From an uncultured Acidobacteriota bacterium (GTDB lineage Bacteria > Acidobacteriota > Terriglobia > Terriglobales > Acidobacteriaceae): DNA of 64,000 bases. Shown here piece by piece: positions 1 through 63,698 of the stretch. The notes beneath the pieces are model-generated. The model saw only the letters and a program-made list of their open reading frames with translations. It was not told the DNA's origin and did no database searches. The stretch is taken from positions 271,592-335,591 of the forward strand of contig CAWAZR010000011.1 in assembly GCA_963786565.1 (NCBI GenBank). Reading direction: 5' to 3'. The first letter of the stretch is position 1; each line of letters begins with the position of its first letter. The position numbers and the translations under genes were made by a program.

Positions 1-781
1 TCCCACGCATCCCGATCTCGTGGCCTGGCCGGAATCGCCCGCGCCGTTCGATGAATCGGACCCCAGATTCAAGAGCGCCCTCGTGAGCATCGCCCACGCC
101 GTCCAGGCGCCGCTGGTGGTGGGCAGCGTTGGCTGGACGTATGACGTTTCTGCGCACGAGTGGAACTACTTCAACTCCGCCCTGGTCGTCGACGCGGACG
201 GCAATCGCGTGGGCCGCTACGACAAAATCCACCTTGTTCCCTTCGGCGAGTACATTCCCTTCCAGAATCTGCTCACCTTCGCCCGCAAGCTCACCGGCCG
301 CGTTGGCTTGTTCACGCGCGGCAGCGAGCGCAATGGGTTTCTGCTGCCTACGCAGAGCGGCGTCAGCCATCGCTACGGCGTCTTTATCTGCTATGAAGCG
401 GTCTTCGCCGACGAGGTGCGCCTGTTCGCGCTCCATGGTGCCGAGGTTTTCGTCAACATCAGTGACGACGGATGGTATGGCGACACCAGCGCTCCCTGGC
501 AGCACTTGAACATGGCACGCATGAGGGCCATCGAGAACCGCCGCTGGCTGCTGCGCGACACCAACTCGGGCGTGACTGCGGCCATCGATCCATATGGGAG
601 GGTCCGCCAGTCGATTCCTCGCCACCAGGCCGACGCGCTGCCTGCGGAATTTGCCTTTCGCAACGACATCACGTTCTACACCGCCCACGGCGACGTCTTT
701 GCGTGGCTATGTGCCATACTTTCAATAGGCGTTGTTGGTTTGTCGTTTGGTCAGCGAAAGTCATTACCGCAGAATCGCTGA
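1..781 (+). CDS. lnt: apolipoprotein N-acyltransferase (Lnt), C-terminal part; the 5' end lies outside the window
   Basis: The ORF is open to the window edge. It carries CN-hydrolase motifs typical of Lnt (RYDKIHLVPFGEYIP lysine motif, VFICYEAVF cysteine motif) and a C-terminal hydrophobic helix WLCAILSIGVVGL. Confidence 0.75.
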   Translation, partial: PTHPDLVAWPESPAPFDESDPRFKSALVSIAHAVQAPLVVGSVGWTYDVSAHEWNYFNSALVVDADGNRVGRYDKIHLVPFGEYIPFQNLLTFARKLTGRVGLFTRGSERNGFLLPTQSGVSHRYGVFICYEAVFADEVRLFALHGAEVFVNISDDGWYGDTSAPWQHLNMARMRAIENRRWLLRDTNSGVTAAIDPYGRVRQSIPRHQADALPAEFAFRNDITFYTAHGDVFAWLCAILSIGVVGLSFGQRKSLPQNR

Positions 782-837
782 CTTGGCGACTGGCTAATTC
801 GCTGACTCGTCAATTCAAAGCCAGGTCCTACGAGCCC

Positions 838-1975
838 ATGTCGCTGAACGATCTCGAATTCGCCTACGCTCCCGTGCGCAATCAAGTGCGCGACCTGCGG
901 GAGTATCTTTGACCCGGCTCGCATCCGCAGGGAACTCGCCGACATAGAAAAGAAGCTCGCCGATCCGGCTCTCTGGTCCGATCCCAACGCCACCAAGCCG
1001 TTGATGCGCGACAAGAAGCGCCTCGAAACGCTGGTGCGCGACGACGACGAGCTCGTCCGCCGCACCGATGACATCGCAGCCTACATCGAGCTGGCGCGCG
1101 AGGGCGAAGATGTCCTCGTTGAACTCGACCGAGAGATCAAAGCCCTGGAAGGGTTCGCCGAGGAACTCGAAGCGCGCACCATGCTTTCCGGCGAAGCCGA
1201 TCCGCTCAACGCCATCGTCACTGTGCATCCCGGCGCGGGCGGCACCGAAAGCCAGGACTGGGCCGAGATGCTGCTGCGCATGTACCTGCGCTGGGCCGAG
1301 CAGCAGGGCTTCAAAACGGAGATGAACGACTATCAGGCCGGCGAAGAGGCGGGCATCAAATCGGCCACCTTCACCATTATTGGCGAGAACGCCTTTGGGC
1401 AGTTGGCCGGCGAGAGCGGTGTGCATCGCCTGGTGCGCATCTCACCGTTCGACCAGGCCAAGCGCCGCCACACGTCGTTCGCTTCGGTTTACGTTTCGCC
1501 GGAGATTGACGAAACCATTCACGTCGATCTGAAAGTGGAAGACCTGCGCATTGACACCTACCGCTCCGGCGGCAAGGGCGGCCAGCATGTGAATACCACC
1601 GACTCCGCCGTACGCATGACACACCTGCCGACCGGCATCGTGGTCCAGTGCCAGAACGAGCGCAGTCAGCATAAGAACCGCGAGAAGGCGATGAAGATGC
1701 TTCGTTCGCGGCTCTATGAGTATGAACTCGAAAAGAAGCGTGCGGTGAGCAAGAAGCTGGAAGACTCCAAGCTCGAGATCAACTTCGGCTCGCAGATCCG
1801 GTCGTACGTCTTGCAGCCTTACCGCATGGCCAAGGATCATCGCACCAAGGTCGAGGTTGGCGACGTGGACAAGGTTCTGGACGGGTATTTGGAACCGTTC
1901 CTGAGGGGCTACCTGCTCGCCAAGCGCCGCGGTACGGCAGTGGCGACGGGCGCAGAGGATGATTTGGAAGTGTGA
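838..1975 (+). CDS. prfB: peptide chain release factor 2, expressed through a programmed +1 frameshift (838..909 joined to 911..1975)
   Basis: The first piece, MSLNDLEFAYAPVRNQVRDLREYL, ends CTT TGA C. The +1 frame continues DPARIRRELADIEKKLADPALW... and contains the RF2-specific SPF motif (RISPFD) and GGQ (GGKGGQHVN). There is no stop between 911 and 1975. Confidence 0.92.
899..913 (+). promoter_or_regulatory. prfB +1 ribosomal frameshift (recoding) site
   Basis: GGGAG (899..903), 3 nt spacer, CTT TGA C (907..913). This is the same architecture as the E. coli prfB autoregulatory site (internal SD-like element, slippery CUU, in-frame UGA followed by C). Confidence 0.9.
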
Positions 1976-2485: not shown

Positions 2486-2947
2486 TTACTTCATCGATTT
2501 CGGAGTGTGTTCCTTGGGAACGCAGCTGATGTACGTTTCTTTCATCGTCGATATGTCGGTGTACGCTTTCACGTAGGTGTCCCACTCTGCATCATGGACA
2601 GGAGGCTTGCTGCCCTCCTCGATGAAGTGGTATTGCAGCACCAGATGATTGGAAAAGTGGGCCGCACCAGTCTGCTCATCCCTCTCCAGGACGCGCGCGG
2701 CGAAGATCTGGTCCTTGTAGCCGTGCTTCCTGAACCACGCCTTATGCATCTCCAGGGCCTTCTCATATGTTTCGAAGTTGCTGTCGGGTTTGATCTCGGT
2801 GAGCCGGACTACGGCGTAGGTACCGCTGCAAGCGGGCAAAGGGCCCTTGAGTGAATACGCTGGTTCCATCTGGGCCTGGCCCTTGCTCGAGAGGATGAGC
2901 GCTGCGCCAAGCAAAACCAACATAGTGAAAAAACGGGAGACTTTCAT
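2486..2947 (-). CDS. hypothetical secreted protein
   Basis: Start placed at the internal ATG 2947, preceded by GGAGGT. Signal-peptide-like N-terminus MKVSRFFTMLVLLGAALILSSKGQAQ. No family recognised. Confidence 0.55.
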   Translation of the reverse strand: MKVSRFFTMLVLLGAALILSSKGQAQMEPAYSLKGPLPACSGTYAVVRLTEIKPDSNFETYEKALEMHKAWFRKHGYKDQIFAARVLERDEQTGAAHFSNHLVLQYHFIEEGSKPPVHDAEWDTYVKAYTDISTMKETYISCVPKEHTPKSMK

Positions 2948-3241
2948 GAGTCGTACCTCCATGGGATTTGTTGAGGGCGGGGGACCAGTTGGCAATCAAA
3001 TTAGCACACGGATGCAGAAATTACATTGAAAAAAGAGCGCTATCCGCTTTTTTTTCAAGAACGAATGGCTCCGGCCCAGTCCCCAATGGGCGGCGGCTCA
3101 CGCCCCGGCCGCCGGCATCACTCTCGCCGTGTCGCGTTTCTTAGGCTTTTGGGCAGTGCAAAGCCATTTTCTCTGGCTTCCGCTGCATCGCCGGTCCTTT
3201 ACACTGAGTCCAACTGCTTGGAGTGTCTTTTCTTGCCTGCC

Positions 3242-5371
3242 ATGCGCCGTTTCCAGTTGATCTTCGCGTTGATCGCCGCATTCGCGGCTGCGCCTCTCGC
3301 ATGCGCCGCATCGAATTCGGCCGACGTTGCGCACCTGCATGTGCAGTTGGTTTTTCCCAACCAGAACCTGAATACCGGGGCGCCGGTGAATGCTGGTTTG
3401 TACTTCAAGCTCGAATCTGGCTGGCATGTGTACTGGAAGAACGCAGGCGACTCCGGCGAGCCGCCGCGCATTCAGTGGACTCTGCCGACCGGTATCACGG
3501 CGAGCGCCATGCAATTCCCTGCGCCCGCGCGCCTGCCGCTGGGCCCGCTGATGGATTTCGGCTACGAAAACGAGGTTCTCTTCCCGTTCACTGTGCAGGC
3601 AGCAGCGACCACTAAGACAGATTCTGCCATCCTGCACGCGAAGGTAGACTGGCTGGTTTGCCGCGAGGTTTGTATTCCCGGCAAAGCTGAGCTAGACCAG
3701 AACGTCAATGTGGTTTCCGGAACGCCGGTCGTCAATTTCATCTCCCCCGGCGACCAGCAGCTATGGGCGCGCCTCGCCAACCAACTCCCGCAAGCTCTGC
3801 CTTCGTCCGACACCGCCATTTTCCAGTCCACGCTCACCGGATTCCGTCTCGCCGTCACCACCGGCCAACGCGAGACCCATGCGGAGTTTTTTCCCGAAGA
3901 CGAGGACATCCTCGACAATCCCGCGCCGCAAACCGTCACGCCAACGGTAGCGGGCTTCGTTCTCGATCTCAAGAAAGACGCGAATCTCGCCACGAATCCC
4001 GCGCAGTTGAAGGGCGTGCTCGAGTTGGCCGGTGGCAGGAACTACGAGATCGTTGCGATGCCCGGAACCGTTGCCGCTCCACCGGCCCCGCCCGCGTTCT
4101 CGTTCGGCGCGCTCGCCAGTACTGCGTTCTTCGCATTCCTCGGCGGGTTACTGCTCAACCTCATGCCCTGCGTCTTTCCCGTGCTGTTCTTGAAAGGCCT
4201 GGCGCTCGTGAATTCCGGAACAGAAGAGCGGCACAAGCTCCGCTCTCACGGCCTGGTTTACACCGCGGGTATTCTCGTCTCTTTTTGGGCGCTGGTTGGC
4301 GCTCTGCTCGGGCTGCGCGCCGCGGGCGCCACGCTGGGCTGGGGATTCCAATTCCAGTCGCCCGTTTTTCTCGCGCTCATGGCCGCGCTCCTCTTCTTCC
4401 TCGGGCTTTCGCTCGCCGGGCAATTCGATATCGGCCTCACGCTCACCAGCGCTGGAGGTTCTCTCGCCGCGAAACAGGGCTACGCGGGCAGCTTTTTCAC
4501 GGGAGTCCTCGCCGTCATTGTCGCCACGCCATGCACGGCGCCTTTTATGGGAGCAGCCATCGGCTATGCGCTCGCCCAACCTGCCGCCGCAACCTTTACG
4601 ATCTTCACCGCGCTTGCTCTCGGCCTGGCCGCGCCCTACGTTGCGCTCACGCTCCAGCCCGCGTGGACCCGCGTGCTGCCCAAACCCGGCGCATGGATGG
4701 ACATTCTCAAGCAGGCGGTTTCGGTTCCCATCTTCGGCACCGTCATCTGGCTCACGTGGGTCGTCGCCGATGCCTATGGCGCGAATCTCCTGCTCGCGCT
4801 GCTTTTTATTTTTCTGCTGCTCGCCGTCGCCGGATGGTTCCTGGGCCGCTGGCCTGCGCAGCGCTGGGCCACTCTCGTTGCAGTGCTGATTCTGCTTACG
4901 ACACTTGTTGCCTGCATCACCGCGCCCAGTGAACTCGCCACTGCGCCCGATCAACTCTCGTCCAAGAGGTCAGAGGCACGGAGTGCCTGGCAGCCCTGGT
5001 CGGCCGATGCCGTCCAGCACGCACTCGCCGCCGGGCAACCCGTTTTTGTGGACTTCACCGCCAGTTGGTGCCTGAGTTGCCAGGTCAACGAGCGCGTCGC
5101 CCTCAGCCAACCTGAAGTGATGCAGGCCTTTGGGGAAAGAAACGTGGCTTTGTTCAAAGCCGACTGGACCCGCGAAGATCCAGCGATTACCCAGGAACTT
5201 ACAGTGCTGGGCCGCAGCGGCGTGCCAGTCTACGCACTCTATGCCCCAGGGGAAAACAACCCACGGTTGCTGCCGCAGGTGCTTACGCCCGGCATCGTTC
5301 TGGATGCCATCAATAAACTCCCCACTGCGGTTGCAACCCCCGCCAGCGCTTCTCCGTCCAAACAGCAGTAA
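3242..5371 (+). CDS. DsbD/ScsB-like thiol:disulfide interchange protein (periplasmic N-domain, CcdA-type membrane core, C-terminal thioredoxin domain)
   Basis: Start chosen at MRRFQLIFALIAAFAAAPLACA (signal peptide). The membrane core has LMPCVFPVL and ATPCTAPFM cysteine motifs. The C-terminal thioredoxin fold has FTASWCLSCQ. The 5' extension in the ORF track (from 3026) is Arg-rich and unlikely to be coding. Confidence 0.8.
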   Translation: MRRFQLIFALIAAFAAAPLACAASNSADVAHLHVQLVFPNQNLNTGAPVNAGLYFKLESGWHVYWKNAGDSGEPPRIQWTLPTGITASAMQFPAPARLPLGPLMDFGYENEVLFPFTVQAAATTKTDSAILHAKVDWLVCREVCIPGKAELDQNVNVVSGTPVVNFISPGDQQLWARLANQLPQALPSSDTAIFQSTLTGFRLAVTTGQRETHAEFFPEDEDILDNPAPQTVTPTVAGFVLDLKKDANLATNPAQLKGVLELAGGRNYEIVAMPGTVAAPPAPPAFSFGALASTAFFAFLGGLLLNLMPCVFPVLFLKGLALVNSGTEERHKLRSHGLVYTAGILVSFWALVGALLGLRAAGATLGWGFQFQSPVFLALMAALLFFLGLSLAGQFDIGLTLTSAGGSLAAKQGYAGSFFTGVLAVIVATPCTAPFMGAAIGYALAQPAAATFTIFTALALGLAAPYVALTLQPAWTRVLPKPGAWMDILKQAVSVPIFGTVIWLTWVVADAYGANLLLALLFIFLLLAVAGWFLGRWPAQRWATLVAVLILLTTLVACITAPSELATAPDQLSSKRSEARSAWQPWSADAVQHALAAGQPVFVDFTASWCLSCQVNERVALSQPEVMQAFGERNVALFKADWTREDPAITQELTVLGRSGVPVYALYAPGENNPRLLPQVLTPGIVLDAINKLPTAVATPASASPSKQQ

Positions 5372-6167: not shown

Positions 6168-6491
6168 ATGCAGGCCGTTGAGTCCAACATCTTCAAAGCG
6201 CTAGCTGACCCCACCCGCAGGGCGATCTTTGAGCGGCTTACCCGCAAAGGCGAGCAGACCGTACACGCGTTAACGGGGTCGTTCCACGTGTCGCAGCCGG
6301 CAATCTCGAAGCACCTGACGGTGCTGAAAAGGGCAAAGCTGGTTCGGCATCGGCGCGAAGGACGCGAGACGCACTACACTGCGCAGCCGAAGGCCTTGGC
6401 GCCGTTGGCCAACTGGATGAGCCACTACGGCGCCTTCTGGAATGAACGATTCGATCGACTCGAAAATCTGCTGGAAAGGATGGACAAATGA
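6168..6491 (+). CDS. ArsR/SmtB-family transcriptional regulator
   Basis: Winged-HTH signature: FKALADPTRRAIFERLTRKGEQTVHALTGSFHVSQPAISKHLTVLKRAKLV. Confidence 0.85.
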   Translation: MQAVESNIFKALADPTRRAIFERLTRKGEQTVHALTGSFHVSQPAISKHLTVLKRAKLVRHRREGRETHYTAQPKALAPLANWMSHYGAFWNERFDRLENLLERMDK

Positions 6492-7397: not shown

Positions 7398-8747
7398 TCA
7401 GTCTTTGCCGTGCTTCGTGGCCTTGACCCTGCGAATCTCTTCCAGCCGCGCGGCCAACTGTCTCTCACGGCCCTCTTGCGTGGGCTGGTAGTAGCGGCGT
7501 CCTTTGAGCGAGTCGGGCAGGCAATCCATGTCGGCCACTTTGCCCTCTTCGTCGTGCGCGTAGCGATAGCCTTCGCTGTAGCCCAGGTCCTTCATCAGGC
7601 GCGTCGGCGCATTGCGCAAATGCAGCGGCACTGGCTCCTGGCGCGTATTCTCAATCTCCGCCTGCACCGCGCCCCAGGCCGTATACACCGCGTTCGATTT
7701 GGGCGCGAGCGCGAGATACACCACGGCTTCGGCCAGCGCCAGTTCGCCCTCCGGTGAGCCGAGGAAATCGTAAGTATCCCTCGCAGAGAGGCACAGGTTC
7801 AGCGCTTCGGGTGCGGCGAGGCCGATGTCCTCAACTGCCATGCGCACGATGCGCCGTGCCAGATACAGTGGATCCTCGCCGCCCGCCAACATGCGTCCCA
7901 ACCAGTACAACGCGGCATCGGGGTCGGAGTTGCGCACGCTCTTATGCAGCGCCGAGATCAGGTTGAAGTGCTCCTCGCCCGATTTGTCGTACATCAGCAC
8001 GCGCTTCTGCACCGCTTCCGCGGCGATCACTTTGGCGATCGTTTTATCGTCTTGCACCAGCTGCGCGGCGACCTCAAGCGCGTTATAGGCGCTGCGGCAG
8101 TCGCCGCTCGAATAGCTCGCGATCAACTCCAGCGCATCGTTGTCGGCAGTCAGTTCGAGTGCGCCAAGTCCGCGTTCCTTGTCGGCGAGCGCGCGCTTGA
8201 GCAGCGTCACGATCTGCTCCTCTTTGAGCGGTTGCAGCACATACACGCGGCAGCGCGAGAGCAGCGCCGAGATAATTTCAAAGGACGGATTCTCGGTGGT
8301 CGCGCCGATCAGCCGAATCGTGCCCCGCTCCACGTAAGGAAGAAACGCATCCTGTTGAGCTTTGTTGAAGCGGTGAATTTCATCAATAAACAGGATCGTC
8401 CGTGAGTGCATTTCGGCGGCGCGCGCAGCGTCTACCATCACCTGCTTGATCTCTTTAATGCCGCTGGTGACTGCCGAAAACTCGATGAAGCTGGCCTCGG
8501 TGGTTTCGGCAACGATCTTGGCCAGCGTGGTTTTTCCCACGCCCGGCGGACCCCAGAAGATCATGGAACTGGCATCGTCGCGCTCGAACTGCACGCGCAG
8601 CGGCTTGCCTGGACCGACCAAATGCTCCTGGCCCACTAACTCGTCCAGGCTGCGCGGTCGCATCCGTTCCGCCAACGGCACCATTGCATGGAGCAGACTT
8701 TTGGAGGAGGACCGTGGAACGTGCGGCGCATTGTCGAACAGATTCAT
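7398..8747 (-). CDS. rarA: replication-associated recombination protein A (AAA+ ATPase)
   Basis: Walker A GPPGVGKTT, Walker B/sensor FIDEIHRFNKAQQD, and the MgsA C-terminal domain (HFNLISALHKSVRNSDPDAALYWL). Confidence 0.9.
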   Translation of the reverse strand: MNLFDNAPHVPRSSSKSLLHAMVPLAERMRPRSLDELVGQEHLVGPGKPLRVQFERDDASSMIFWGPPGVGKTTLAKIVAETTEASFIEFSAVTSGIKEIKQVMVDAARAAEMHSRTILFIDEIHRFNKAQQDAFLPYVERGTIRLIGATTENPSFEIISALLSRCRVYVLQPLKEEQIVTLLKRALADKERGLGALELTADNDALELIASYSSGDCRSAYNALEVAAQLVQDDKTIAKVIAAEAVQKRVLMYDKSGEEHFNLISALHKSVRNSDPDAALYWLGRMLAGGEDPLYLARRIVRMAVEDIGLAAPEALNLCLSARDTYDFLGSPEGELALAEAVVYLALAPKSNAVYTAWGAVQAEIENTRQEPVPLHLRNAPTRLMKDLGYSEGYRYAHDEEGKVADMDCLPDSLKGRRYYQPTQEGRERQLAARLEEIRRVKATKHGKD

Positions 8748-33199: not shown

Positions 33200-35213
33200 T
33201 TACGGCGTTGCGCTTTTTTCCACTCGCATCATCACTGTGTGTCCCGCGGCTTGTGGTCCGCGGACCACGTGCGGCGTCATCACAATCACCAGCGTCGCGT
33301 AGCTCCTCTGCGAATCCTTATCCGTGACGTTGTTCATTCCCGGGATCTCGCTAAGCCCGGGAGTTCCGCTGATTGCCTGGCTCTGCGACTTGTCCATCTC
33401 CGTGGCCACTACCGTCGCCTCGCCCGCTTTCAGCGTCACCACGCCGCTGTATTCCCGGTTATTGAGCACCGGATTGCCGTCGATCGAGGTTCCGGCAAGC
33501 GCGTCGAGCTTCATTTCAACGGTCAGTGCCACGTCGCCGTTGCGGAGTGCCTTGGGCGTTACGGTCAACGTCAAACCCAGGTCCTGGTACTGCACCATCG
33601 GAACATTCGGCACCGTACTTGTAAGGGAGGACAGCAGGGAACTGAGGCTGCTCGATGTGCCTGCTCCGGTCAATCCTGGAATGCTCCCGGCGCTTCCCGA
33701 CAGGCTCGAAAAGGAAGAGGTCTGGATGGGATATTTTTCGCCAAGCTTGAGTTCGCCCTTTTCACCGTCCTCAAGGCGGAGCTGAACCTGATCGAGCTCG
33801 CGCGAGTCGGACGTATTCAGATTGAGGTTGTAAGCAGTTTTCCCCGGAACCAGGGCCGACTGCGTAAGTCCGCCACCGAACAGGGCAAAGCCGCTGGAGA
33901 GCAGAGGGCTTGAAACCTGGCCCGAGGCGATGAGAATGCCAAGAATTGCCAGGGGATCGTTGGGCGAAGCCAATCCCGAAGAAATGATCTGCTGCACCAG
34001 GCTTTGGTTGGCGTTCAAAATTGACTGCTCTTCTGCATACACATTGAAGGCCGCGATGCTCTGCGGTAATTGCGCACCGGTGTTGCGATCGCTGGTGTGT
34101 GCCACCTGGATGAGGCGCACATCGAGCAATACCTGGCTCCGCCCGTCGAGAAGGCTCTGCATGGTGGCGTTGAAGGCTTCCAGTGTGCGTTGGGGAGCGC
34201 GTAGAGTAATGGCGTGTTCGCTGAGCGAAAGCGTCGCCTGCTGCACAACGAAAATATTCCTTGCCACCGACAACACGTCGTTCAATTCATCGTCGCTCAA
34301 CCCGTTCAGGTAGACCGTTTCCACGTCCTGGCGCAGAAACTGATTGCGGTTCGCGGTGGTGTCGGCTGCCACCAGCGCGCGATGCGCATCCAGCGGCACA
34401 AAGAACGTGTTCGTGACCAGGCTCAACACCTGCGCCGCCTGCTCAAAGCTGACGTCGTCCACATCGAACCGGGTCAGGAATGGGTGCACGCTGGTGTCGA
34501 GCATGGCCGTCATGCCGTAGGCGTGAAAGACCTGGAGGATGATTTGCTCCCGATCGTTGCGCAGATGAAAGCTATGCACGCCCGGAGCGGGTTCCAGCTG
34601 CACGGGTCCAGCCGGGGAACTGCCGCTCTGCTCGTAGATCGCTTGCGGCTGGCTGCGCACGGAGTCGTCGGCCAACTCGTCAAGATGCTGGTTGATTTCA
34701 ATGTTCGTGGGGTCGAGCGCGCGGGCGCGCTCCAGCGCATCGCGCGCCGCAGCCTCATTGTTCAGCAGCCGATCCTTGGCTGCCTCCTGAATCAACTCGG
34801 TGACCGCGTGGTTGCGCGCCACATCGGCTGCCAGCCGATAGTTGGCATTCGCCGGATCGAGTACGGCGGCGTGCTCATAGTCCTTCAGGGCAGCTTCAAA
34901 CTGGCGATCGAGGAATAATTTGCTCGCATCGAGATAAAGTTTGGTGGCTCGCCGCCTGTCGCTTGAGCGCGGCTGCGTAGTTTCCGAACGCGGCTGCGCG
35001 GTCACTTTGTCCGTAGCTGCACTGGGAGCGGTCGCCGGCGTGGTCTGGCCTTCGGGCGCGTTTTGACCTGCGGGCGCCGCCGCGGGAGTCGCGGTTTGCG
35101 CCGAAAGAGCGCCTGTAAACAGGACCAGCGCCAGGCCCGCGCAACAGTTCCGGGCCAGGGATCCGGCTTGCCCGCACGCCCGCGCGGCCTGGGTTTTGCC
35201 GCCGCGGCTTCAT
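33200..35213 (-). CDS. secretin (GspD/PilQ superfamily) with TPR-like N-terminal region; 5' end shows a frame discontinuity
   Basis: C-terminal secretin domain (GTPGLSEIPGMNNV...ATLVIVMTPHVV). The reading frame stays open upstream of the track start and encodes LARNCCAGLALVLFTGALSAQ (a signal-peptide h-region), but the only ATG (35213, 10 nt after the HAD stop) is in a different frame. Confidence 0.7.
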
Positions 35214-39904: not shown

Positions 39905-40176
39905 CGGAATTCGGTGAGTTTAGCATTGCAGGCTTTCGACGGCCAATCCGAAAATCTTTTGATTCGCTTGCCTTCCGCTAAGAATAAGAAACGATTCTTC
40001 TTCGCGGCGCGCAAATTCTGCATCCAATTTCTCAGTACCGGAATAAGGCGCCGCCTGCATTGCGACGCGCTTCCGCTTCTATTAAAATAAAAGCGTCCCT
40101 GCACGTAGATTTGTTTCGCATTCCTGCCTTGGTCAGCTCAGTTTTCCTATAGCGCACAAACGCGAGGACTGAAGTC

Positions 40177-41103
40177 ATGACCGACTCTCCCGACCATGCC
40201 ATTTTTGGCCTGTTGCCCCAGCCCGAGGGCCGCAGACGTTCCTTCGTTACCAGTTCGATCCTCAACCTCGCGTTGCTCAGCGTATGTATTTTCGCCGGCA
40301 TGTCGGCTCCGAAGGTGATGGAGCGGCACTACGAAGAAACGCAACTGATTGCTCCCACCCTGCCGCCTCCCATGAAAATCAGGCAGCCGCGTCCCCAGCC
40401 TCCCAAGCCCGTGCCGGAGCACAGGCCTCTTCGCATGGAGGCCAAGTTCACGGCTCCGCCGATGCCGCACATCAGGCCAAACATGGCGCTCACGCCACGG
40501 CCCCTGCCTTCGCTGGCCGCAGCCATGCCCGCGCAAAACAAGTTCGTCCATCCCTCAGTGGCCCCCGTCCATCTCGGCGATACATTCGGAGTCACGCCTA
40601 ATCCCAACGCCGTACGTCCGGCCACCGTCGCCGCCCTCGGCAATCCCTATGGCGGCATGCAGGGTCCGGCCGTCGCTCCTCACGGTGTCGTCAAATCTGC
40701 TGGTATAGGCGACTCCACGCGTGGCGGGGCAGGCGGTGGTGGCGGAGGAGGATATGGCGGCAAGGTTGCATCCGTCGGCATGCCCGGCTACGCGCCGGTT
40801 CCCGCTGCGCCCGTCTATGCTTCCACGGAGCGCCAATCCACCAGCGTCGAGGTGCTCTCCAAGCCGCCCGTGCAATATCCCCCCGAGGCCCGCCAATTAC
40901 ACATCGAGGGCAACGTCGTGCTCAGCGTCACTTTTCTTGCGAACGGCCAGGTCGTTGTCCACGGCGTAGTCCACGGTCTGGGCCACGGGCTCGATCAGGA
41001 AGCCATCCGTGTGGCGCAGCAGATTCGCTTCCGCCCCGCTACCGAGAACGGCCGCCCTGTGGACGTAACCACGCGCGTTACCATCGCTTTTCAACTCGCA
41101 TAG
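40177..41103 (+). CDS. energy transducer TonB
   Basis: N-terminal anchor FVTSSILNLALLSVCIFAG, Pro-rich spacer (PPPMKIRQPRPQPPKPVPEHRP), Gly-rich tract, and a C-terminal TonB domain (PVQYPPEARQLHIEGNVVLSVTFLANGQV...RFRPATENGRPVD). Confidence 0.8.
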   Translation: MTDSPDHAIFGLLPQPEGRRRSFVTSSILNLALLSVCIFAGMSAPKVMERHYEETQLIAPTLPPPMKIRQPRPQPPKPVPEHRPLRMEAKFTAPPMPHIRPNMALTPRPLPSLAAAMPAQNKFVHPSVAPVHLGDTFGVTPNPNAVRPATVAALGNPYGGMQGPAVAPHGVVKSAGIGDSTRGGAGGGGGGGYGGKVASVGMPGYAPVPAAPVYASTERQSTSVEVLSKPPVQYPPEARQLHIEGNVVLSVTFLANGQVVVHGVVHGLGHGLDQEAIRVAQQIRFRPATENGRPVDVTTRVTIAFQLA

Positions 41104-49002: not shown

Positions 49003-51144
49003 ATGGCATCAGTTGCTCCAAAGGCCGGACCCAGAGGGGTGCGGAAACGCTCGCCAGCTCCTATGCTGGCTGTTCCGGGGGAGGCCGTGGATCTGAACGT
49101 GTACGGAAACGCAAATCCCGACGCGCAGCGCGCGGTTCTCGACGGTCTCCCAGTCCTGGTCTTCCTTGAACGTGCGGGCAAGATTGTCTTTGCCAATGCC
49201 GAAGCGCGGCAGTTGCTGGGTATGGATGGCGGCGAGTGGATTCCCCGTCCCGTCGAAGATGTTTTGTGGGGACTTTTTCCCGGCACGGCTGAGCCGCAAA
49301 CCCTGCTGACCGGCACGCGGCACGGTAGTCCATTCCATGCCACTCTTCCGGCCCCCGACGGCAGCCTTGTGCCTGTCGAGGGCACCTATAGCATCTCAAA
49401 CGCGCAACTGCGCGAAGCTGTGATCGTGGCTCATCCCTGCGAAAAGGAACGAGCTCCCAAATCGCGATTGATGGAAGATGTCCTCTCCAGCCTTCCCGAA
49501 GGCGTCGCGATTGAACATCAGAATCACGTTCTCTACACCAATCCCGCGTTCACGCGCATGTTTGGCTACACCGCTGAAGAGGTCAGCGGCGGCAGCCTGC
49601 GCGAATTGATTGTCCCAGAGACACGCCTGAACGAAAATGCCACGCTGCTGCGCGTGGTCGACGATCGGGGAAGCGCCACCATGGAAACCGTGCGCCTCAG
49701 CAAGGCCGGCGAACTCGTAGACGTCAGCATGCAAATCGCGCCGCTCTTGGTGGACGGCGCCAAGGTGGGCTATGTCTTCACGTTTCGCGATATCGGCGAA
49801 GTGAAACAGACTGAAGCCAAGTTGCAGCACGACGCCATGCACGATGTGCTCACCGGATTGCCCAACCGTGCGCTGTTTCTTGACCGCCTGAACCTCACTC
49901 TGACTCGCCGCCTGCGCCATCCTGACAATGGCTGTGGCGTGCTCTATATGGATCTCGACAACTTCAAGTCCGTCAACGACAGCCTGGGTCACGCCGCGGG
50001 CGATGTACTGTTGATGGCGATTGCCGGACGGCTGCGTTCCTCGCTTCGCCCTCAGGACTCTGCCGCGCGTCTCGGCGGCGATGAATTTGCCGTGCTGGTG
50101 GAAAACATTGTAACTGCTTACGATCTTGAAGTGGTCGCCAGACGCATCCTGCATGAGCTGGAGCGGCCCTTCGATATCTTCGGCCACACCGTTCACGCCG
50201 GCGCCAGCATCGGTGCGGCTATGGCGGGTCCCGAGCACACATCATCCGATCTGCTGCTGCGCGACGCCGACTTTGCCATGTACCGCGCCAAACAAGCGGG
50301 CCGCGGACGTTACGAAATCTTCGACAAGCATCTCGAGGTCTTCGTCACCAGCCAGCAAGAGCGCGAGCGCGAGTTGCGGACGGCCCTCGACAAGCGCCAA
50401 TTCACATTCCTCTATCAGCCCATCTACCGGCTCACCAACGGCAAGCTGGAAGGCTTCGAATCTCAACTCTGCCTGCGCCGCGCCGATGGATCCATTGAGG
50501 ATGTTGACGGCCTGCTCGCACTGGCCGAGGACACGGGCCTTTCTATCGCGCTGGCCCAGGAAGTATTTGACACCGTTTCCGCGCAGTTGCGGTCCTGGAG
50601 CGAAACTCTGCCGAACTCGGATATATTCCTCTCCGTCAACCTGACGCGCCGGCAGATATTTAACACCGATTTGATCGCCCAGGTAATGAGAGCCCTTGCG
50701 GCCAGCGGCGTTGATCCATCGCGCCTCGTGTTCGAGATTCCCGAAAGCGCCCTCAACGAGACTCCCGATGCTGCGGTTGGCATCCTCCAGCGCCTCGCCG
50801 ATTGCCAGGTGCGCGTAGCTATCGACGAATTCGGCAGTAGCCTGGCGCCCTTGAATCATCTGCTTCAGTTGCCCCTTGCCATGGTCAAGCTCGCGCCCAA
50901 GCTCACAGCCGCTGCCGTTTCGACGGGCCGTCAACAGGCTGTACTGGAGTCGCTCGTCCGCCTCTCCAACACATTGAACCTGCCTGTCGTCGCCCAGGGA
51001 ATCGAGACCCGCGAGCAGGTTGCAGCGCTGGTCCGCATAGGCTGCACGTTGGGTGAAGGACCGCTTCTGTCACCCGCTCTCAATCCGGAACGTGCGCTGG
51101 AACTGGCGCAAGCCGGCTCGCGACCTGCCGCGTCTCGCGCCTAA
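49003..51144 (+). CDS. PAS-PAS-GGDEF-EAL signalling protein (GGDEF intact, EAL degenerate)
   Basis: GGDEF with an upstream RxxD I-site (RPQDSAARLGGDEF). EAL-domain landmarks are altered: ESQLC for EALxR, DEFGSS for DDFGTG, KLA for KID, AQGIE for AEGVE, EGP for QGY. Confidence 0.85.
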   Translation: MASVAPKAGPRGVRKRSPAPMLAVPGEAVDLNVYGNANPDAQRAVLDGLPVLVFLERAGKIVFANAEARQLLGMDGGEWIPRPVEDVLWGLFPGTAEPQTLLTGTRHGSPFHATLPAPDGSLVPVEGTYSISNAQLREAVIVAHPCEKERAPKSRLMEDVLSSLPEGVAIEHQNHVLYTNPAFTRMFGYTAEEVSGGSLRELIVPETRLNENATLLRVVDDRGSATMETVRLSKAGELVDVSMQIAPLLVDGAKVGYVFTFRDIGEVKQTEAKLQHDAMHDVLTGLPNRALFLDRLNLTLTRRLRHPDNGCGVLYMDLDNFKSVNDSLGHAAGDVLLMAIAGRLRSSLRPQDSAARLGGDEFAVLVENIVTAYDLEVVARRILHELERPFDIFGHTVHAGASIGAAMAGPEHTSSDLLLRDADFAMYRAKQAGRGRYEIFDKHLEVFVTSQQERERELRTALDKRQFTFLYQPIYRLTNGKLEGFESQLCLRRADGSIEDVDGLLALAEDTGLSIALAQEVFDTVSAQLRSWSETLPNSDIFLSVNLTRRQIFNTDLIAQVMRALAASGVDPSRLVFEIPESALNETPDAAVGILQRLADCQVRVAIDEFGSSLAPLNHLLQLPLAMVKLAPKLTAAAVSTGRQQAVLESLVRLSNTLNLPVVAQGIETREQVAALVRIGCTLGEGPLLSPALNPERALELAQAGSRPAASRA

Positions 51145-59981: not shown

Positions 59982-60512
59982 CTATGCCACGCGCTCGATC
60001 GTCACCGACTCCAGCACCACCGGCTTATGCGGCTTGTCCTGCGCGTTGCGCGCCACCTTGCTGATGCCGGTCACTATATCCTGGCCCTCCACCACTTCGC
60101 CGAAGATGGTGTGATTGCCCGTGAGCCACGGCGTTGCCGCCACGGTGAGGAAGAACTGGCTGCCGTTGGTACCGGGGCCGGCATTGGCCATCGCCAGCTT
60201 GCCCGGCTTGTCGAAGCTGTGACGCGAGCCCTTGGTCTCATCCTGAAAGCGGTAGCCCGGTCCGCCCATGCCGGTGCCCGCCGGATCGCCGCCCTGGATC
60301 ATGAAATCGGGAATCACGCGATGGAAGATGGTGCCGTCGTAGAGCTTGTCCTTCGACTTGGCGCGCGTCACCGGGTGCGTCCACTCTTTGGAGCCCTCGG
60401 CAAGCTCGATGAAATTCTTTACGGTGATGGGCGCTTCAGATTCGAAAAGGCGCACGGTAATCTTGCCTTCCGAAGTGGTAAAGACGGCGTAAGTTCCTGC
60501 TGCAAGTGCCAT
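59982..60512 (-). CDS. cytoplasmic cyclophilin-type peptidyl-prolyl isomerase
   Basis: FHRVIPDFMIQGGDP and MANAGPGTNGSQFF. No signal peptide. Confidence 0.9.
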   Translation of the reverse strand: MALAAGTYAVFTTSEGKITVRLFESEAPITVKNFIELAEGSKEWTHPVTRAKSKDKLYDGTIFHRVIPDFMIQGGDPAGTGMGGPGYRFQDETKGSRHSFDKPGKLAMANAGPGTNGSQFFLTVAATPWLTGNHTIFGEVVEGQDIVTGISKVARNAQDKPHKPVVLESVTIERVA

Positions 60513-60571
60513 GTGTTTTTCCTCGTTTGAATTGGTGCATTGACTCTTAGATGGTTACATACAAAAGCTTG

Positions 60572-60678
60572 TCATCCTGAGCGGAGCAAGTCGCGTTTTT
60601 GCGGCTTGCGAAGTCGAAGGACCTGCGGTTGTCTTTCTCTCGAACTTCGGATTCGGCTCGCGAAATTGGCAGAGCCCT
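60572..60678. repeat. possible repeat-derived intergenic element related to the B-type unit
   Basis: GTCATCCTGAGCGGAGCAAGTCGCG...GCGAAGTCGAAGGACC shares CCTGAGCG.AG...GTCGAAGG with the B-type units at 38330 and 41150. There is only one copy of this form in the window, so repeat status is not demonstrated here. Confidence 0.3.
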
Positions 60679-60999
60679 TTAACGGCCCAGCGTAAAGATG
60701 ATGTTGATTTTGGTGTCGACCTCGACGGGCTCGCCGTTCAGCAGATAAGGCCGATAGCGCCATTGTTTGACGGCATCGAGCGCGGCCTGTTGCAGAAGAT
60801 CCGGCCCGCTGACAACTTGAAGATCCTGAATAAGACCGTCCTTGCCAATGACCGCAGTCAGCACGACCGTGCCGGATACGCCGGCTTTCTTGGCATCAAT
60901 CGGGTAGACCGGCGCTACCTTGGAGACGAGCAAGCCGACCGCGATGCCCGGGGAGATGATGATCCTCTTTGGCTGAGCTCCCGACATTGGCGCGTTCAT
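60679..60999 (-). CDS. stand-alone TonB C-terminal domain ORF (no signal peptide or anchor)
   Basis: VAPVYPIDAKKAGVSGTVVLTAVIGKDGLIQDLQVVSGPDLLQQAALDAVKQWRYRPYLLNGEPVEVDTKINIIF is a TonB_C fold pattern. Its ATG overlaps the upstream cyclophilin stop (ATGA). Confidence 0.7.
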   Translation of the reverse strand: MNAPMSGAQPKRIIISPGIAVGLLVSKVAPVYPIDAKKAGVSGTVVLTAVIGKDGLIQDLQVVSGPDLLQQAALDAVKQWRYRPYLLNGEPVEVDTKINIIFTLGR

Positions 61000-61715
61000 G
61001 CGCCGGGCGGCGGCGGAGGAGGCGGCGGCGGTGGAACCGGCGGCGGGGCCTGATTGAAGATCGTCACCTTCTCCAGCACCACCGGCGTCAGCGGCTTGTC
61101 ATCGGAATTACGCGGCACGCGTGCAATGGCTTTCACCACAGCCACGCTGGCGTCGTCGCACTGTCCGAAAATCACGTAATGCCCATCGCCCGAATCGAAG
61201 GTCTTTTCGGTGATGAAAAATTGGCTGCCATTCGTATTTGGCCCGCTGTTCGCCATGGCCAGTCGTCCCGGCCGGTCGAAATTGAGATTGGGATCGAACT
61301 CGTCGTCGAAGGCGTAGCCCGGATCGCCCATCCCTGTGCCCGTCGGATCGCCGCCTTGAATCATGAACTCCGGAATCACGCGATGGAAAATGGTGCCATC
61401 GTAATACCGCTTGTGGTGCATCATCTTTTTGGTCGCGGGATCGGCCCAGTCCTTGGTGCCCTCCACCAGGGCAATAAAGTTGGCCACGGCTTTCGGCGCC
61501 TGCCTCTGGAAAAACTGGCAGGTAATGCGGCCCATCGAGGTGTCCATCACCACGTACGGCCCATTGGGAACAGTCATTGCCTCGGGAGTGGCCTGGGGAG
61601 CGTCGGGAATCTCCTGGCTCGCCGGTGTCGACTGTTGCGCAAAGACCGTCAGGGCCGCGCATGCGGCGCAAGCCGCGGCCAGGGCAGAGAAAAGAAGGGT
61701 GCGCTGAAGTTTCAT
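60996..61715 (-). CDS. secreted cyclophilin-type peptidyl-prolyl isomerase with C-terminal poly-proline tail
   Basis: Signal peptide MKLQRTLLFSALAAACAACAALTVFAQ, FHRVIPEFMIQGGDP, MANSGPNTNGSQFF, and a C-terminus NQAPPPVPPPPPPPPPPGA. Confidence 0.88.
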   Translation of the reverse strand: MKLQRTLLFSALAAACAACAALTVFAQQSTPASQEIPDAPQATPEAMTVPNGPYVVMDTSMGRITCQFFQRQAPKAVANFIALVEGTKDWADPATKKMMHHKRYYDGTIFHRVIPEFMIQGGDPTGTGMGDPGYAFDDEFDPNLNFDRPGRLAMANSGPNTNGSQFFITEKTFDSGDGHYVIFGQCDDASVAVVKAIARVPRNSDDKPLTPVVLEKVTIFNQAPPPVPPPPPPPPPPGA

Positions 61716-61858
61716 GCCGACTTCGAGATTAAATCATGCGCCGTGGGCCACGCCACTTCGCGGAACGTGAGCTTGCTGACGTGCCCCCGCGCGCAAAAAG
61801 CTTCTCGTTCCCGAAGCTCCCGTTTTCTAATCTCTTATCTCTGTTCTCTGATCCTTGT

Positions 61859-62548
61859 CTACGGCGCAGGCGGCATCGACTGGCCTTCGCGCACAATCGT
61901 CACCTTCTCCAGCACGATGGGAGTGAGCGGCGTGTCCCCGTGGTGCTGCGTTCGCGCAATGGTCTTCACTACGGCCACGCTGGCGTCGTCGCACTGTCCA
62001 AAGAGCGTGAAGTGCTGGTTGAGCAGGTCGTAAGCCTGTTCTGTGATGAAAAACTGGCTGCCGTTCGTGTTGGGTCCGCTGTTCGCCATCCCCAGCCGTC
62101 CGGGCCGGTCGAAGTTCAGGTTGGGATCGAACTCATCCTCGAAGGTGTACCCCGGCCCTCCCGTCCCGATGCCCGTCGGATCGCCGCCCTGGATCATGAA
62201 CTCCGGAATCACGCGATAGAAGGTCGTGCCGTCGTAGTACCGCTTGTGATGCTGCACCTTCTTGGTTGTGGGATCGATCCAGTCCTTAGTACCCTCGGCC
62301 AGCCCAATGAAGTTGGCCACGGCATTCGGCGCCTGCTTCTGATAGAACTGGCACGTGATGCGGCCCATCGAGGTGTCCATCACCACGTGCGGCCCATTGG
62401 GAACCGTCATCGCCCCGGGAGCGGCCTGCGGAGCGCCGGAAATCTGCTGGCTCGCCGGCGTCGACTGCTGCGCAAGGGCAACTACGGCCCCGCATGCGGC
62501 GCAAGCCGCGGCCAGGGCAGAGAAGAGTAGCGTGCGCTGAGTTTTCAT
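61859..62548 (-). CDS. secreted cyclophilin-type peptidyl-prolyl isomerase (tandem paralogue)
   Basis: Roughly 80 percent identical by eye to the 60996..61715 product, with the same signal peptide and core. It ends REGQSMPPAP, with no poly-Pro tract. Confidence 0.88.
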   Translation of the reverse strand: MKTQRTLLFSALAAACAACGAVVALAQQSTPASQQISGAPQAAPGAMTVPNGPHVVMDTSMGRITCQFYQKQAPNAVANFIGLAEGTKDWIDPTTKKVQHHKRYYDGTTFYRVIPEFMIQGGDPTGIGTGGPGYTFEDEFDPNLNFDRPGRLGMANSGPNTNGSQFFITEQAYDLLNQHFTLFGQCDDASVAVVKTIARTQHHGDTPLTPIVLEKVTIVREGQSMPPAP

Positions 62549-62621
62549 GCCGACTTCGAGATTAAATCATGCCCCGTGGTGCATGCCAGCCTGCGCCGAT
62601 CGCGTTCCCGGCCCGCAGACT

Positions 62622-63630
62622 CTAATTCTCCGTAGGCATCTTCTCGATGTGGTCGATGATCAGCCGATCCACGGTGGCGCTCCGGTCTTCCAGCTTTAGC
62701 CCCATCTGACTGACGGACTCGAAAACGCTCGATCCGCCGCCAGGGTCCGATGCCTCTGGAGCCGTGTTTCCGCCACCACTCGACGGGCTTGCAGGAATCG
62801 GCATGCCTTGCGCGCGGGCCATGGCTCATCAGATCCGCGATCGAAATCTCGACATCGACCTCGTAGTAGCCCTTGAGCCCTGTCATATCGATCACCTGCC
62901 GGCTGTTGGCCCCGCCCATCTGCATCAATATGGTCGAAAGCAAATCCGCGAATCCTTGCATGGTCACGCCGCTCGATATGATGTCGAACGTCATAGTTTG
63001 CCGGTCGACCTTCTCGATGATCGTACCCCTGGCGCCCATATTCGCGGTGATGGTGAAGTCCGAGTTCATCTTGATGCGCATCGGCCCATCCACGTCGTCC
63101 ACTTGCCGTTCACCGGGCTGGAGCGGTGAGTTGGGGTCGAACGCCTGCGGCGCCGTCGCCGCTTCCTTCATCTTGACCCCGCTCTTGCCGACCACCAGTC
63201 CCAGTACCTTGTGTTCCTCCTGCGCATGGTGGGCAACCAGCTTGAACCGTTCCGCGAGCAACGCCTGCAGCATGGCGGGAACATCGTCCTTGGTCGCGCC
63301 TTCGGGAATCGAGGCCACAATATCGAAGCGCTCTTGCGACATCCAGGGCGGGCCGCTGAGCTGATAGAGGCGGATTTTATAGGCCATGGCAATCAACTGA
63401 TCGAGCTGCGTGTAGGTATACGTCGCTCGTGTGGCGTCGATCTCCTGCCCGACCTTCGGCATCTTGCCCGCCCGCATATCGGCGGCCATTTGCGCCTGAT
63501 CGAGAGGCGCGGCCGGCTTTATCGTGGCTACATCAAAGGTGAATTTGCTCTGCGGCGCCTGCCCGGATGCGGCGCCCGATGCAACAACAAGAAGGATGAG
63601 TGCGGAGACAATACGGCGATGGAATTTCAT
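62622..63630 (-). pseudogene. TIGR03435-family (soil-associated, Acidobacteria-type) secreted protein with an internal frameshift
   Basis: The N-terminal 270 aa (FDVATIKPA..., LSGPPWMSQERFDI, LLAERFKLVAHH, DMTGLKGYYEVDVE) are in one frame. The family-typical C-terminus SVFESVSQMGLKLEDRSATVDRLIIDHIEKMPTEN is in another frame (ORF 62622..62822). The track ORF continues into Arg-rich nonsense. Confidence 0.75.
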
Positions 63631-63698
63631 AGAAGCTCTTTCTGTGGCGCGAATCTGGAGAAATCATACGCCTCGGCGCGTATGCGCAAAAGAGCCTG

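Follow-up and report, generated by a model that had tools for sequence, protein, structure and literature searches.

On the minus strand of a 64,000-nucleotide stretch of DNA from an uncultured bacterium of the Acidobacteriaceae (in the following, the window), a secreted cyclophilin is followed directly and in a different frame by little more than a TonB C-terminal domain (TonB_C). This arrangement raises the question whether the locus holds two coupled genes, a recoded gene or one gene that has been broken. As sequenced, the cyclophilin ORF (60996..61715) encodes 239 aa with a signal-peptide-like N-terminus, a PF00160 domain and the tail NQAPPPVPPPPPPPPPPGA before a TGA, its 3' end reading ...PPPPPPPPPPGA-TGA. 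The TonB_C ORF (60679..60999, likewise minus strand) encodes 106 aa with PF03544 at residues 29-104. Stop and start overlap as ATGA (60999-60996), the ATG lying at 60999-60997 and the TGA at 60998-60996, and the junction in this broken form has the sequence GGCGCATGAAC. A sequence-only reading of the same DNA had described this overlap, and both its coordinates and its TonB_C assignment hold. It had also remarked that the 106-aa ORF has no signal peptide, membrane anchor or Pro-rich spacer of its own, and we found all three to be absent from the window sequence. In addition, the TonB_C frame contains no alternative start codon between the upstream stop and the ATG at 60999 of the window, and the first residues of the 106-aa product are those immediately ahead of the TonB_C fold. 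An ATGA overlap as such is not unusual within the window, as ordinary gene pairs show it too, at 6488-6491 and at 8744-8747.

The answer that emerges from our analysis is that 60679..61715 is, with near certainty, a single gene for an exported protein consisting of signal peptide, cyclophilin, poly-Pro spacer and TonB_C. Residues 1-26 (61638..61715, minus strand) read as a putative Sec-type signal peptide, MKLQRTLLFSALAAACAACAALTVFA|QQ, for which cleavage after VFA is probable; its n-h-c layout and its FAQQS motif are shared by the aligned fusions and by a plain secreted paralogue. The cyclophilin domain covers residues 54-218 (61062..61556, minus strand; PF00160, E 5.5e-42); its score over profile positions 1-158 of 159 is 144.1 bits, where the curated cut-off is 21.7. 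In alignments A1 and A2, the residues R112, F117, M118, Q120, A155, N156, Q165 and F167 do not vary, H179 hardly varies, and the motifs FHRVIPxFMIQGGD, AN and QFF are invariant throughout. Mapped by motif (FHRxIPxFMxQGGD, ANxG, QFF, HxVFG), these residues have counterparts in human CypA that we take to be R55, F60, M61, Q63, A101, N102, Q111, F113 and H126. By profile and catalytic residues the domain classifies as a cyclophilin-type peptidyl-prolyl isomerase (PPIase), and isomerase activity is predicted. The Pro-rich spacer APPPVPPPPPPPPPPGA follows at residues 223-239 (60999..61049, minus strand). Its uninterrupted proline run is exactly 10 residues long, not longer than 10 as had been noted, and 13 of 14 residues are proline; length and composition of the spacer vary between orthologues in alignment A1. 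The TonB_C domain (60688..60915, minus strand) corresponds to residues 29-104 of the 106-aa ORF, or about 268-343 of the fusion. It reaches 76.8 bits over profile positions 2-79 of 79 (cut-off 24.6; E 1.7e-21), carries a PVYP motif that is nearly invariant in alignment A1 and matches TonB C-terminal domains in the PDB (2k9k, E 1.5e-9; also 6i97, 2gsk and 2grx).

The evidence for a single gene comes mainly from relatives. With the conceptual fusion as query, a 345-aa protein obtained by restoring one A at 60999/61000, the best 120 matches in a database of clusters at 90% identity are all single ORFs of 291-371 aa that carry PF00160 and PF03544, and query coverage is at least 92% in 116 of these 120. 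The closest, P0121, also has 345 aa and is 98% identical over 100% of the length. The proposal that the two ORFs represent one exported protein interrupted by one frame step is borne out by these matches, and the check suggested there, whether cyclophilin and TonB_C form one ORF in orthologues, is answered in the affirmative. The earlier reading did not know of such an architecture as a described one; databases do contain it, since all of these 120 clusters combine the two domains, and pipelines at NCBI and JGI, where they name such proteins, call them 'TonB family protein [Terracidiphilus sp.]' or 'peptidyl-prolyl cis-trans isomerase A (cyclophilin A)'. The family, exemplified by P0121, P0242 and P0243, shares with the window copy the domain order, the signal peptide, the poly-Pro spacer, the neighbourhood and, once the window copy is mended, the length; the window copy differs in being broken by one missing base. 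In relatives of Terracidiphilus (Acidobacteriaceae) the gene is maintained as a single ORF of some 330-357 aa. Our literature search found no experimental characterisation of any P0121-like fusion. The 90% cluster that contains the 239-aa protein of the window has three other members, all fused and 341-345 aa long, whereas the 106-aa ORF is a singleton known from one contig. That the window holds the two domains in two ORFs rather than one is attributed, on the sequence comparisons given below, to an assembly error.

At the position of the break the nearest relatives read PGAMNAP and most others PGAA... (alignment A1), so that the apparent start methionine is a lineage-specific internal residue, alanine occupying its position in most orthologues. 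The junction peptide ...PPPPGAMNAP..., which had been predicted beforehand, is encoded by the intact relatives L004, P0121 and P0243, and the junction peptide expected of a fused product is PPPPGAMNAPMSGAQPK.

A search with the TonB_C part alone gave a misleading picture. When the 106-aa ORF was the sole query, the 120 matches listed were TonB_C-only proteins of 84-181 aa with no fusion among them. This result would suggest that the locus normally contains two distinct genes, one for a cyclophilin and one for a small stand-alone TonB_C protein, arranged as a translationally coupled operon, and the ATGA at 60999-60996 is the stop/start overlap expected of such a pair. However, the listed matches turned out to be either calls cut by contig ends (L001-L004) or a fragment of an ExbBD-linked TonB (L086). 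In the JGI contig L001, one frame runs from the contig edge as ...YVIFGQCDDASVAVVKAIARV...VTIVPEGAPMPPAPGTAPAQGELPKRINISAGV...; L003 reads ...PPPPPPPPPGATSTPMPETAPPPKRVNISAGV... in a single frame; the Logan contig L004 encodes PPPPPPPGAMNSPSQ... in one frame with the junction GGT GCA ATG AAC; and in L002 the C-terminus of the cyclophilin is in frame with TonB_C. Altogether, cyclophilin or poly-Pro sequence is in frame with TonB_C in each of L001-L006. The short TonB_C-only calls in L001-L004 are artefacts, as contig ends cut the gene and the frame is open upstream. The matches of 155-166 aa represent the C-terminal part of a genuine TonB beside exbB-exbD-exbD in L086, where tonB is itself frameshifted in its assembly, on a contig with the same name style as that of L005. 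The DNA behind the closest matches thus showed truncated calls or genuine TonB, and we rejected the TonB_C-only matches as a refutation of the fusion; the word-index search had simply missed the 98%-identical fusion later found with the mended query. Neither arrangement nor start is conserved as in a coupled pair either: the methionine is mostly alanine, the split form is a singleton and the 106-aa product has no export signal. Overall, we regard two separate genes as the least probable account of the locus, with a likelihood close to nil.

If the gene is one, the cause of its split has to be sought in the few nucleotides at 60996..61000 on the minus strand, where the window reads GGC GC-ATG AAC and the relatives read GGC GCA ATG AAC. 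One A of the codon pair GCA-ATG would be missing; the old frame would then run into GGC GCA TGA, a stop, and the internal, lineage-specific Met codon would become the apparent start of the 106-aa TonB_C ORF. The loss of one A from AATGA gives rise to the TGA stop and the seeming ATGA overlap alike; that the junction looks canonical is coincidental and follows from the local AATGA sequence. Three explanations had been offered beforehand, namely a sequencing indel, a recent mutation and translational coupling or -1 recoding. The sequencing indel has by far the best support, the recent mutation retains a small probability and coupling or recoding has no support.

The decisive comparison is with a near-identical second assembly. 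L005, which carries P0121 and is fully syntenic, shares 99.4% DNA identity with the window over 8.3 kb with two indels: the window lacks one A at 60999/61000 and has an extra A at 62826. L005, L085 and L095 all derive from a single ENA contig. It can be compared with the window over positions 26300-64000, and over these 37.7 kb DNA identity is 99.4-99.6%. Five isolated 1-nt indels occur in the 37.7 kb, each of which breaks a conserved ORF in one assembly only. Three of these breaks are on the side of the window, at 35186 (secretin start), 61000 (fusion) and 62826 (DUF3738); the other two are in the second assembly, at 49502 (PAS-GGDEF-EAL) and 54758, and the window is intact at both. The remaining indels form two patches with gaps summing to 21 nt and 6 nt, both in frame. 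As 1-nt ORF-breaking indels are divided between the two assemblies and gaps in multiples of three stay in frame, long-read consensus errors are the likely source; selection would not leave such a pattern. According to PMC12313526, contig_N contigs in MFD genome bins are Nanopore-only metaFlye assemblies polished once with Medaka, and contig_N names and MFD bins among the relatives point to assemblies of this kind. On this comparative evidence, the split is very probably an error that persisted in the consensus of a long-read metagenome assembly, and neither biology nor recoding.

Two of the window's breaks outside the fusion serve as indicators of assembly quality. In the secretin gene at 33200..35212 (minus strand), an extra C at 35186 in the window relative to L095 puts the start codon and the first 8 codons out of frame. 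The DUF3738 gene (62545..63663, minus strand) is broken by the extra A at 62826, and Pfam finds its profile split, with positions 2-146 in one ORF and positions 150-190 in the ORF 62622..62822. Contigs of the soil-metagenome runs X1, X3 and X4 are without this extra A, like L005. Overlapping same-strand ORFs at 35.2-36.9, 12.7-15.2 and 22.5-24.6 kb were also considered as frameshifts and rejected, as Pfam assigns them to distinct genes.

A 1-nt deletion that is real and recent in this strain, and that would amount to incipient loss of the TonB_C docking module, appears unlikely to us. Its presumed products are no more probable: an exported cyclophilin with a dangling poly-Pro tail and, at most, a TonB_C fragment that is made by ATGA-coupled reinitiation, stays untargeted in the cytoplasm and presumably serves no purpose. 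The TonB_C part (60679-60967) is base-for-base identical between the window and the intact L005 allele, which argues that no decay has taken place and that the break, if real, is extremely recent. Furthermore, the window assembly has at least two other ORF-breaking 1-nt indels, its sister has two at other places, and the split form is found on a single contig only. On the other hand, coupling through the ATGA overlap would be feasible, as in the ordinary gene pairs of the window, the tandem paralogue demonstrates a viable secreted cyclophilin that lacks TonB_C, and the orthologue in the JGI contig L002 has a different frameshift, inside its cyclophilin part. The read-level data bear on this reading as well. 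We mapped eight soil-metagenome runs (X1-X7 and X21) to the junction; the single contig crossing it, from run X3, has the additional base and the L005 haplotype, and no read or contig of the window's own haplotype covers 60975-61005 in these runs. When JGI metagenome contigs were scanned for either form of the junction, 8 chance matches in unrelated genes came up. Since own-haplotype reads across the junction were not found, a real recent mutation keeps its small share of probability beside the strongly favoured consensus error.

Two observations on the surroundings of the break speak against an artefact. The missing A comes from a stretch of just two A, not from a long homopolymer. The indels at 61000 and 62826 are 1.8 kb apart in a locally diverged segment, which could mark a locus in genuine decay. 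Within this segment, the cyclophilin part of the fusion is locally 4-5% diverged between the window and L005, and five substitutions adjoin the break (60968-60984, MSGAQPK versus MPGAQPR). For 25 clustered substitutions we considered gene conversion from the tandem paralogue and rejected it, as the window has the paralogue-like base in 8 cases, L005 in 10 and neither in 7.

Programmed recoding would turn the split into a regulated feature, in which ribosomes stalling on the run of 10 prolines shift to the -1 frame or reinitiate and thereby produce free cyclophilin and fusion in a regulated ratio. The circumstances are suggestive in so far as a ribosome-stalling poly-Pro run directly precedes the frame step and the stop codon overlaps the start codon. 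None of the 120 best relatives has the frame step, however; all are in-frame fusions with comparable poly-Pro runs, and the DNA of L004 and L005 runs through in one frame, so the break is not conserved. No slippery heptamer of the form X XXY YYZ is present in ...CCG CCG CCC GGC GCA TGA, and the downstream 121 nt form no stimulatory structure, as their minimum free energy of -38.8 kcal/mol does not improve on the mean of -38.9 for shuffled sequences (z = 0.03). Reinitiation, moreover, would give a separate 106-aa protein without export signal and no fusion. We therefore consider recoding highly improbable and retain the consensus error as the explanation of the split. The case calls for caution, as a single lost base in a long-read metagenome assembly can mimic a coupled or recoded gene pair. 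Here the probable artefact even brings about an ATGA overlap of textbook form behind a ribosome-stalling run of prolines, and comparison with a near-identical second assembly exposes it.

Gene order supports the assignment of the locus to the fusion family. The fusion is surrounded by genes for DUF1501, DUF3738, two cyclophilins, DUF202 and DUF302. Upstream lies the secreted tandem paralogue (61859..62548, minus strand; 229 aa; PF00160, E 7e-38), whose DNA is about 82-84% identical to the cyclophilin part of the fusion. Its lack of both tail and partner had been pointed out before and is confirmed: the protein ends in ...VREGQSMPPAP and no TonB_C follows. Directly downstream, a cytoplasmic cyclophilin of 176 aa is encoded (59982..60512, minus strand; PF00160, E 1.5e-45). 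Among L001-L006, the loci examined with a readable 3' flank of the fusion, the cyclophilin gene 3' of the fusion is full-length in 5 of 6; in L002 the contig ends within it. L005 has the secreted paralogue too and the same gene order as the window. The juxtaposition of the two ORFs is not due to chance; a conserved fusion gene stands at the orthologous position in relatives.

What the intact protein might do can be approached by comparison with known systems. TonB of E. coli and the acidobacterial TonB of L086 likewise have a Pro-rich spacer directly before the TonB_C domain, and the TonB_C domain of the fusion shares 68% identity with the C-terminal domain of the L086 TonB and only 32% with the other TonB_C protein of the window. 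In contrast to energy-transducing TonB, the N-terminus of the fusion is by eye a cleavable-looking signal peptide without the anchor His, and a whole cyclophilin domain is placed between N-terminus and spacer. The exbB and exbD genes are absent beside the fusion, whereas the L086 tonB adjoins a MotA_ExbB gene and two exbD genes. With neither the Ser/His membrane anchor nor the linkage to exbB/exbD of a true TonB, the fusion presumably cannot transduce proton-motive force as TonB does. E. coli PpiA (RotA) and the paralogue 61859..62548 resemble the fusion in combining a signal peptide with a single cyclophilin domain that bears the catalytic motifs; they differ in being free soluble enzymes without a targeting domain. 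The same logic of a catalytic or chaperone module joined to an envelope-localising module is found in SurA, PpiD and FkpA and in M56/BlaR1-type peptidase-TonB_C proteins. SurA, PpiD and FkpA belong to other PPIase classes (parvulin, FKBP) and use other localisation modules; any sequence relationship is confined to the single domains. The AF2 model of the fusion has a mean pLDDT of 47.7 and is confident in the TonB_C part only (pLDDT 73-95), which shows mixed strand-helix secondary structure.

From homology and domain logic a functional model can be outlined. After cleavage of the signal peptide the protein would be periplasmic. Its TonB_C domain would be a close paralogue of the ExbBD-linked TonB domain that lacks TonB's membrane anchor, and it could dock passively on peptidoglycan or on the TonB boxes of outer-membrane transporters that depend on TonB, of which Acidobacteria have very many. 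Linked to this docking domain by the rigid poly-Pro spacer, the proline isomerase would be kept close to the outer membrane, on its inner face. We tentatively suggest a periplasmic PPIase tethered by a passive TonB_C docking domain, a reading that we hold to be possible but less probable than its opposite. Slightly more doubtful is the specific proposal of an undescribed envelope foldase in which a non-energised copy of TonB_C serves as an address label to transporter TonB boxes. There, the cyclophilin could act on prolines of the plug or the TonB box, or the protein could compete with TonB as a regulator. A conserved, uncharacterised architecture that joins an exported cyclophilin to a TonB C-terminal domain in a clade of soil Acidobacteriaceae thus offers the testable hypothesis that periplasmic protein folding is linked to TonB-dependent transport.

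The fusion is confined to a narrow, Terracidiphilus-like clade of the Acidobacteriaceae; it is uncharacterised, and the databases already hold the family. Among representatives at 50% identity, P0244 is the only full-length fusion, and the nine other long matches are by Pfam cyclophilin only, several with 2-3 copies and none with TonB_C. That clustering at 50% leaves a single full-length fusion representative indicates that the family forms one tight clade. In other Acidobacteriaceae genomes, the secreted cyclophilin is directly followed by the second cyclophilin gene, without TonB_C. A scan of GTDB genomes returned one fused locus (L006) and one fusion of reverse order (L046); as its patterns were cyclophilin-specific and gave only these two, the species distribution is under-sampled. 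A paper describing either domain order did not come up in our literature search. In L046, from another Terriglobia genome bin, one ORF encodes signal peptide, TonB_C and cyclophilin in this order. This fusion is independent of the family described here and stems from an unrelated genome bin, which suggests that the pairing of cyclophilin and TonB_C has been selected for and is not accidental.

Besides the missing A that splits the fusion gene (60679..61715, minus strand), further one-nucleotide indels were found in the window assembly. A DUF3738 gene (62545..63663, minus strand) is shifted in frame by an additional A at 62826 that is absent from L005, a piece of the sister ENA contig, and from the contigs of three other runs; the ORF at 62622..62822 represents the C-terminal part of this frameshifted gene. 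The secretin gene (33200..35212, minus strand) carries an additional C at 35186, which places its start codon and first eight codons out of frame. This gene is unbroken in L095, another piece of the same contig, and between the two sequences it also exhibits a 21-nt in-frame repeat difference at 34950-34984. The sister assembly contains its own one-nucleotide indels at L085 positions 11349 and 16598 (window 49502 and 54758). These break a PAS-GGDEF-EAL gene and one gene without a Pfam match, both of which are unbroken in the window.

The fusion gene lies in a row of three consecutive cyclophilin genes (59982..62548, minus strand) encoding a secreted protein of 229 aa, the fusion and a cytoplasmic protein of 176 aa. 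Of the 45 substitutions relative to L005, 25 are concentrated in the fusion gene's cyclophilin part (61014..61572), and 21 of these 25 occur at codon position 3. Conversion by the tandem paralogue (61859..62548, minus strand) was considered as their source and fails to explain them. The stretch resembles an allele acquired through recombination with a more divergent strain.

A fusion orthologue at the JGI locus Ga0495419_0135605 (2..1011) is frameshifted inside the cyclophilin domain, where approximately 13 codons are missing (NGSQFF|T...HTIFGQCD), yet its C-terminus is in frame with TonB_C. This orthologue could be either a genuine pseudogene or a chimera produced during assembly. In a Terriglobia genome bin from GTDB (JBGOUV010000269.1, locus positions 2833..3780), one ORF encodes a signal peptide, TonB_C and cyclophilin, that is, the same two domains as in the window fusion but in reversed order, and it is probably an independent fusion. 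A genuine tonB (ENA ERZ25039590 contig_80990, locus positions 3460..4474) adjoins exbB-exbD-exbD. A shift in frame separates its N-terminal part from the poly-Pro region of 14 prolines, so the gene caller gives only a 157-aa TonB_C protein. Within the window, a second TonB_C protein is encoded at 40153..41103 (plus strand). Its open frame comprises 316 aa, against 308 aa for the gene call in L085, and its TonB_C domain shares only 32% identity with that of the fusion.

When the 106-aa TonB_C ORF, a short query with a single domain, was used in a word-index protein search, there were no multi-domain proteins among the matches listed. The search with the mended 345-aa fusion protein revealed that multi-domain proteins absent from this list contain a 98%-identical copy of the short query. 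Short queries can conceal fusions. Finally, the 229-aa paralogue ends in VREGQSMPPAP, a tail similar to the sequence with which the linker begins in some fusions (VREGQPMP...).
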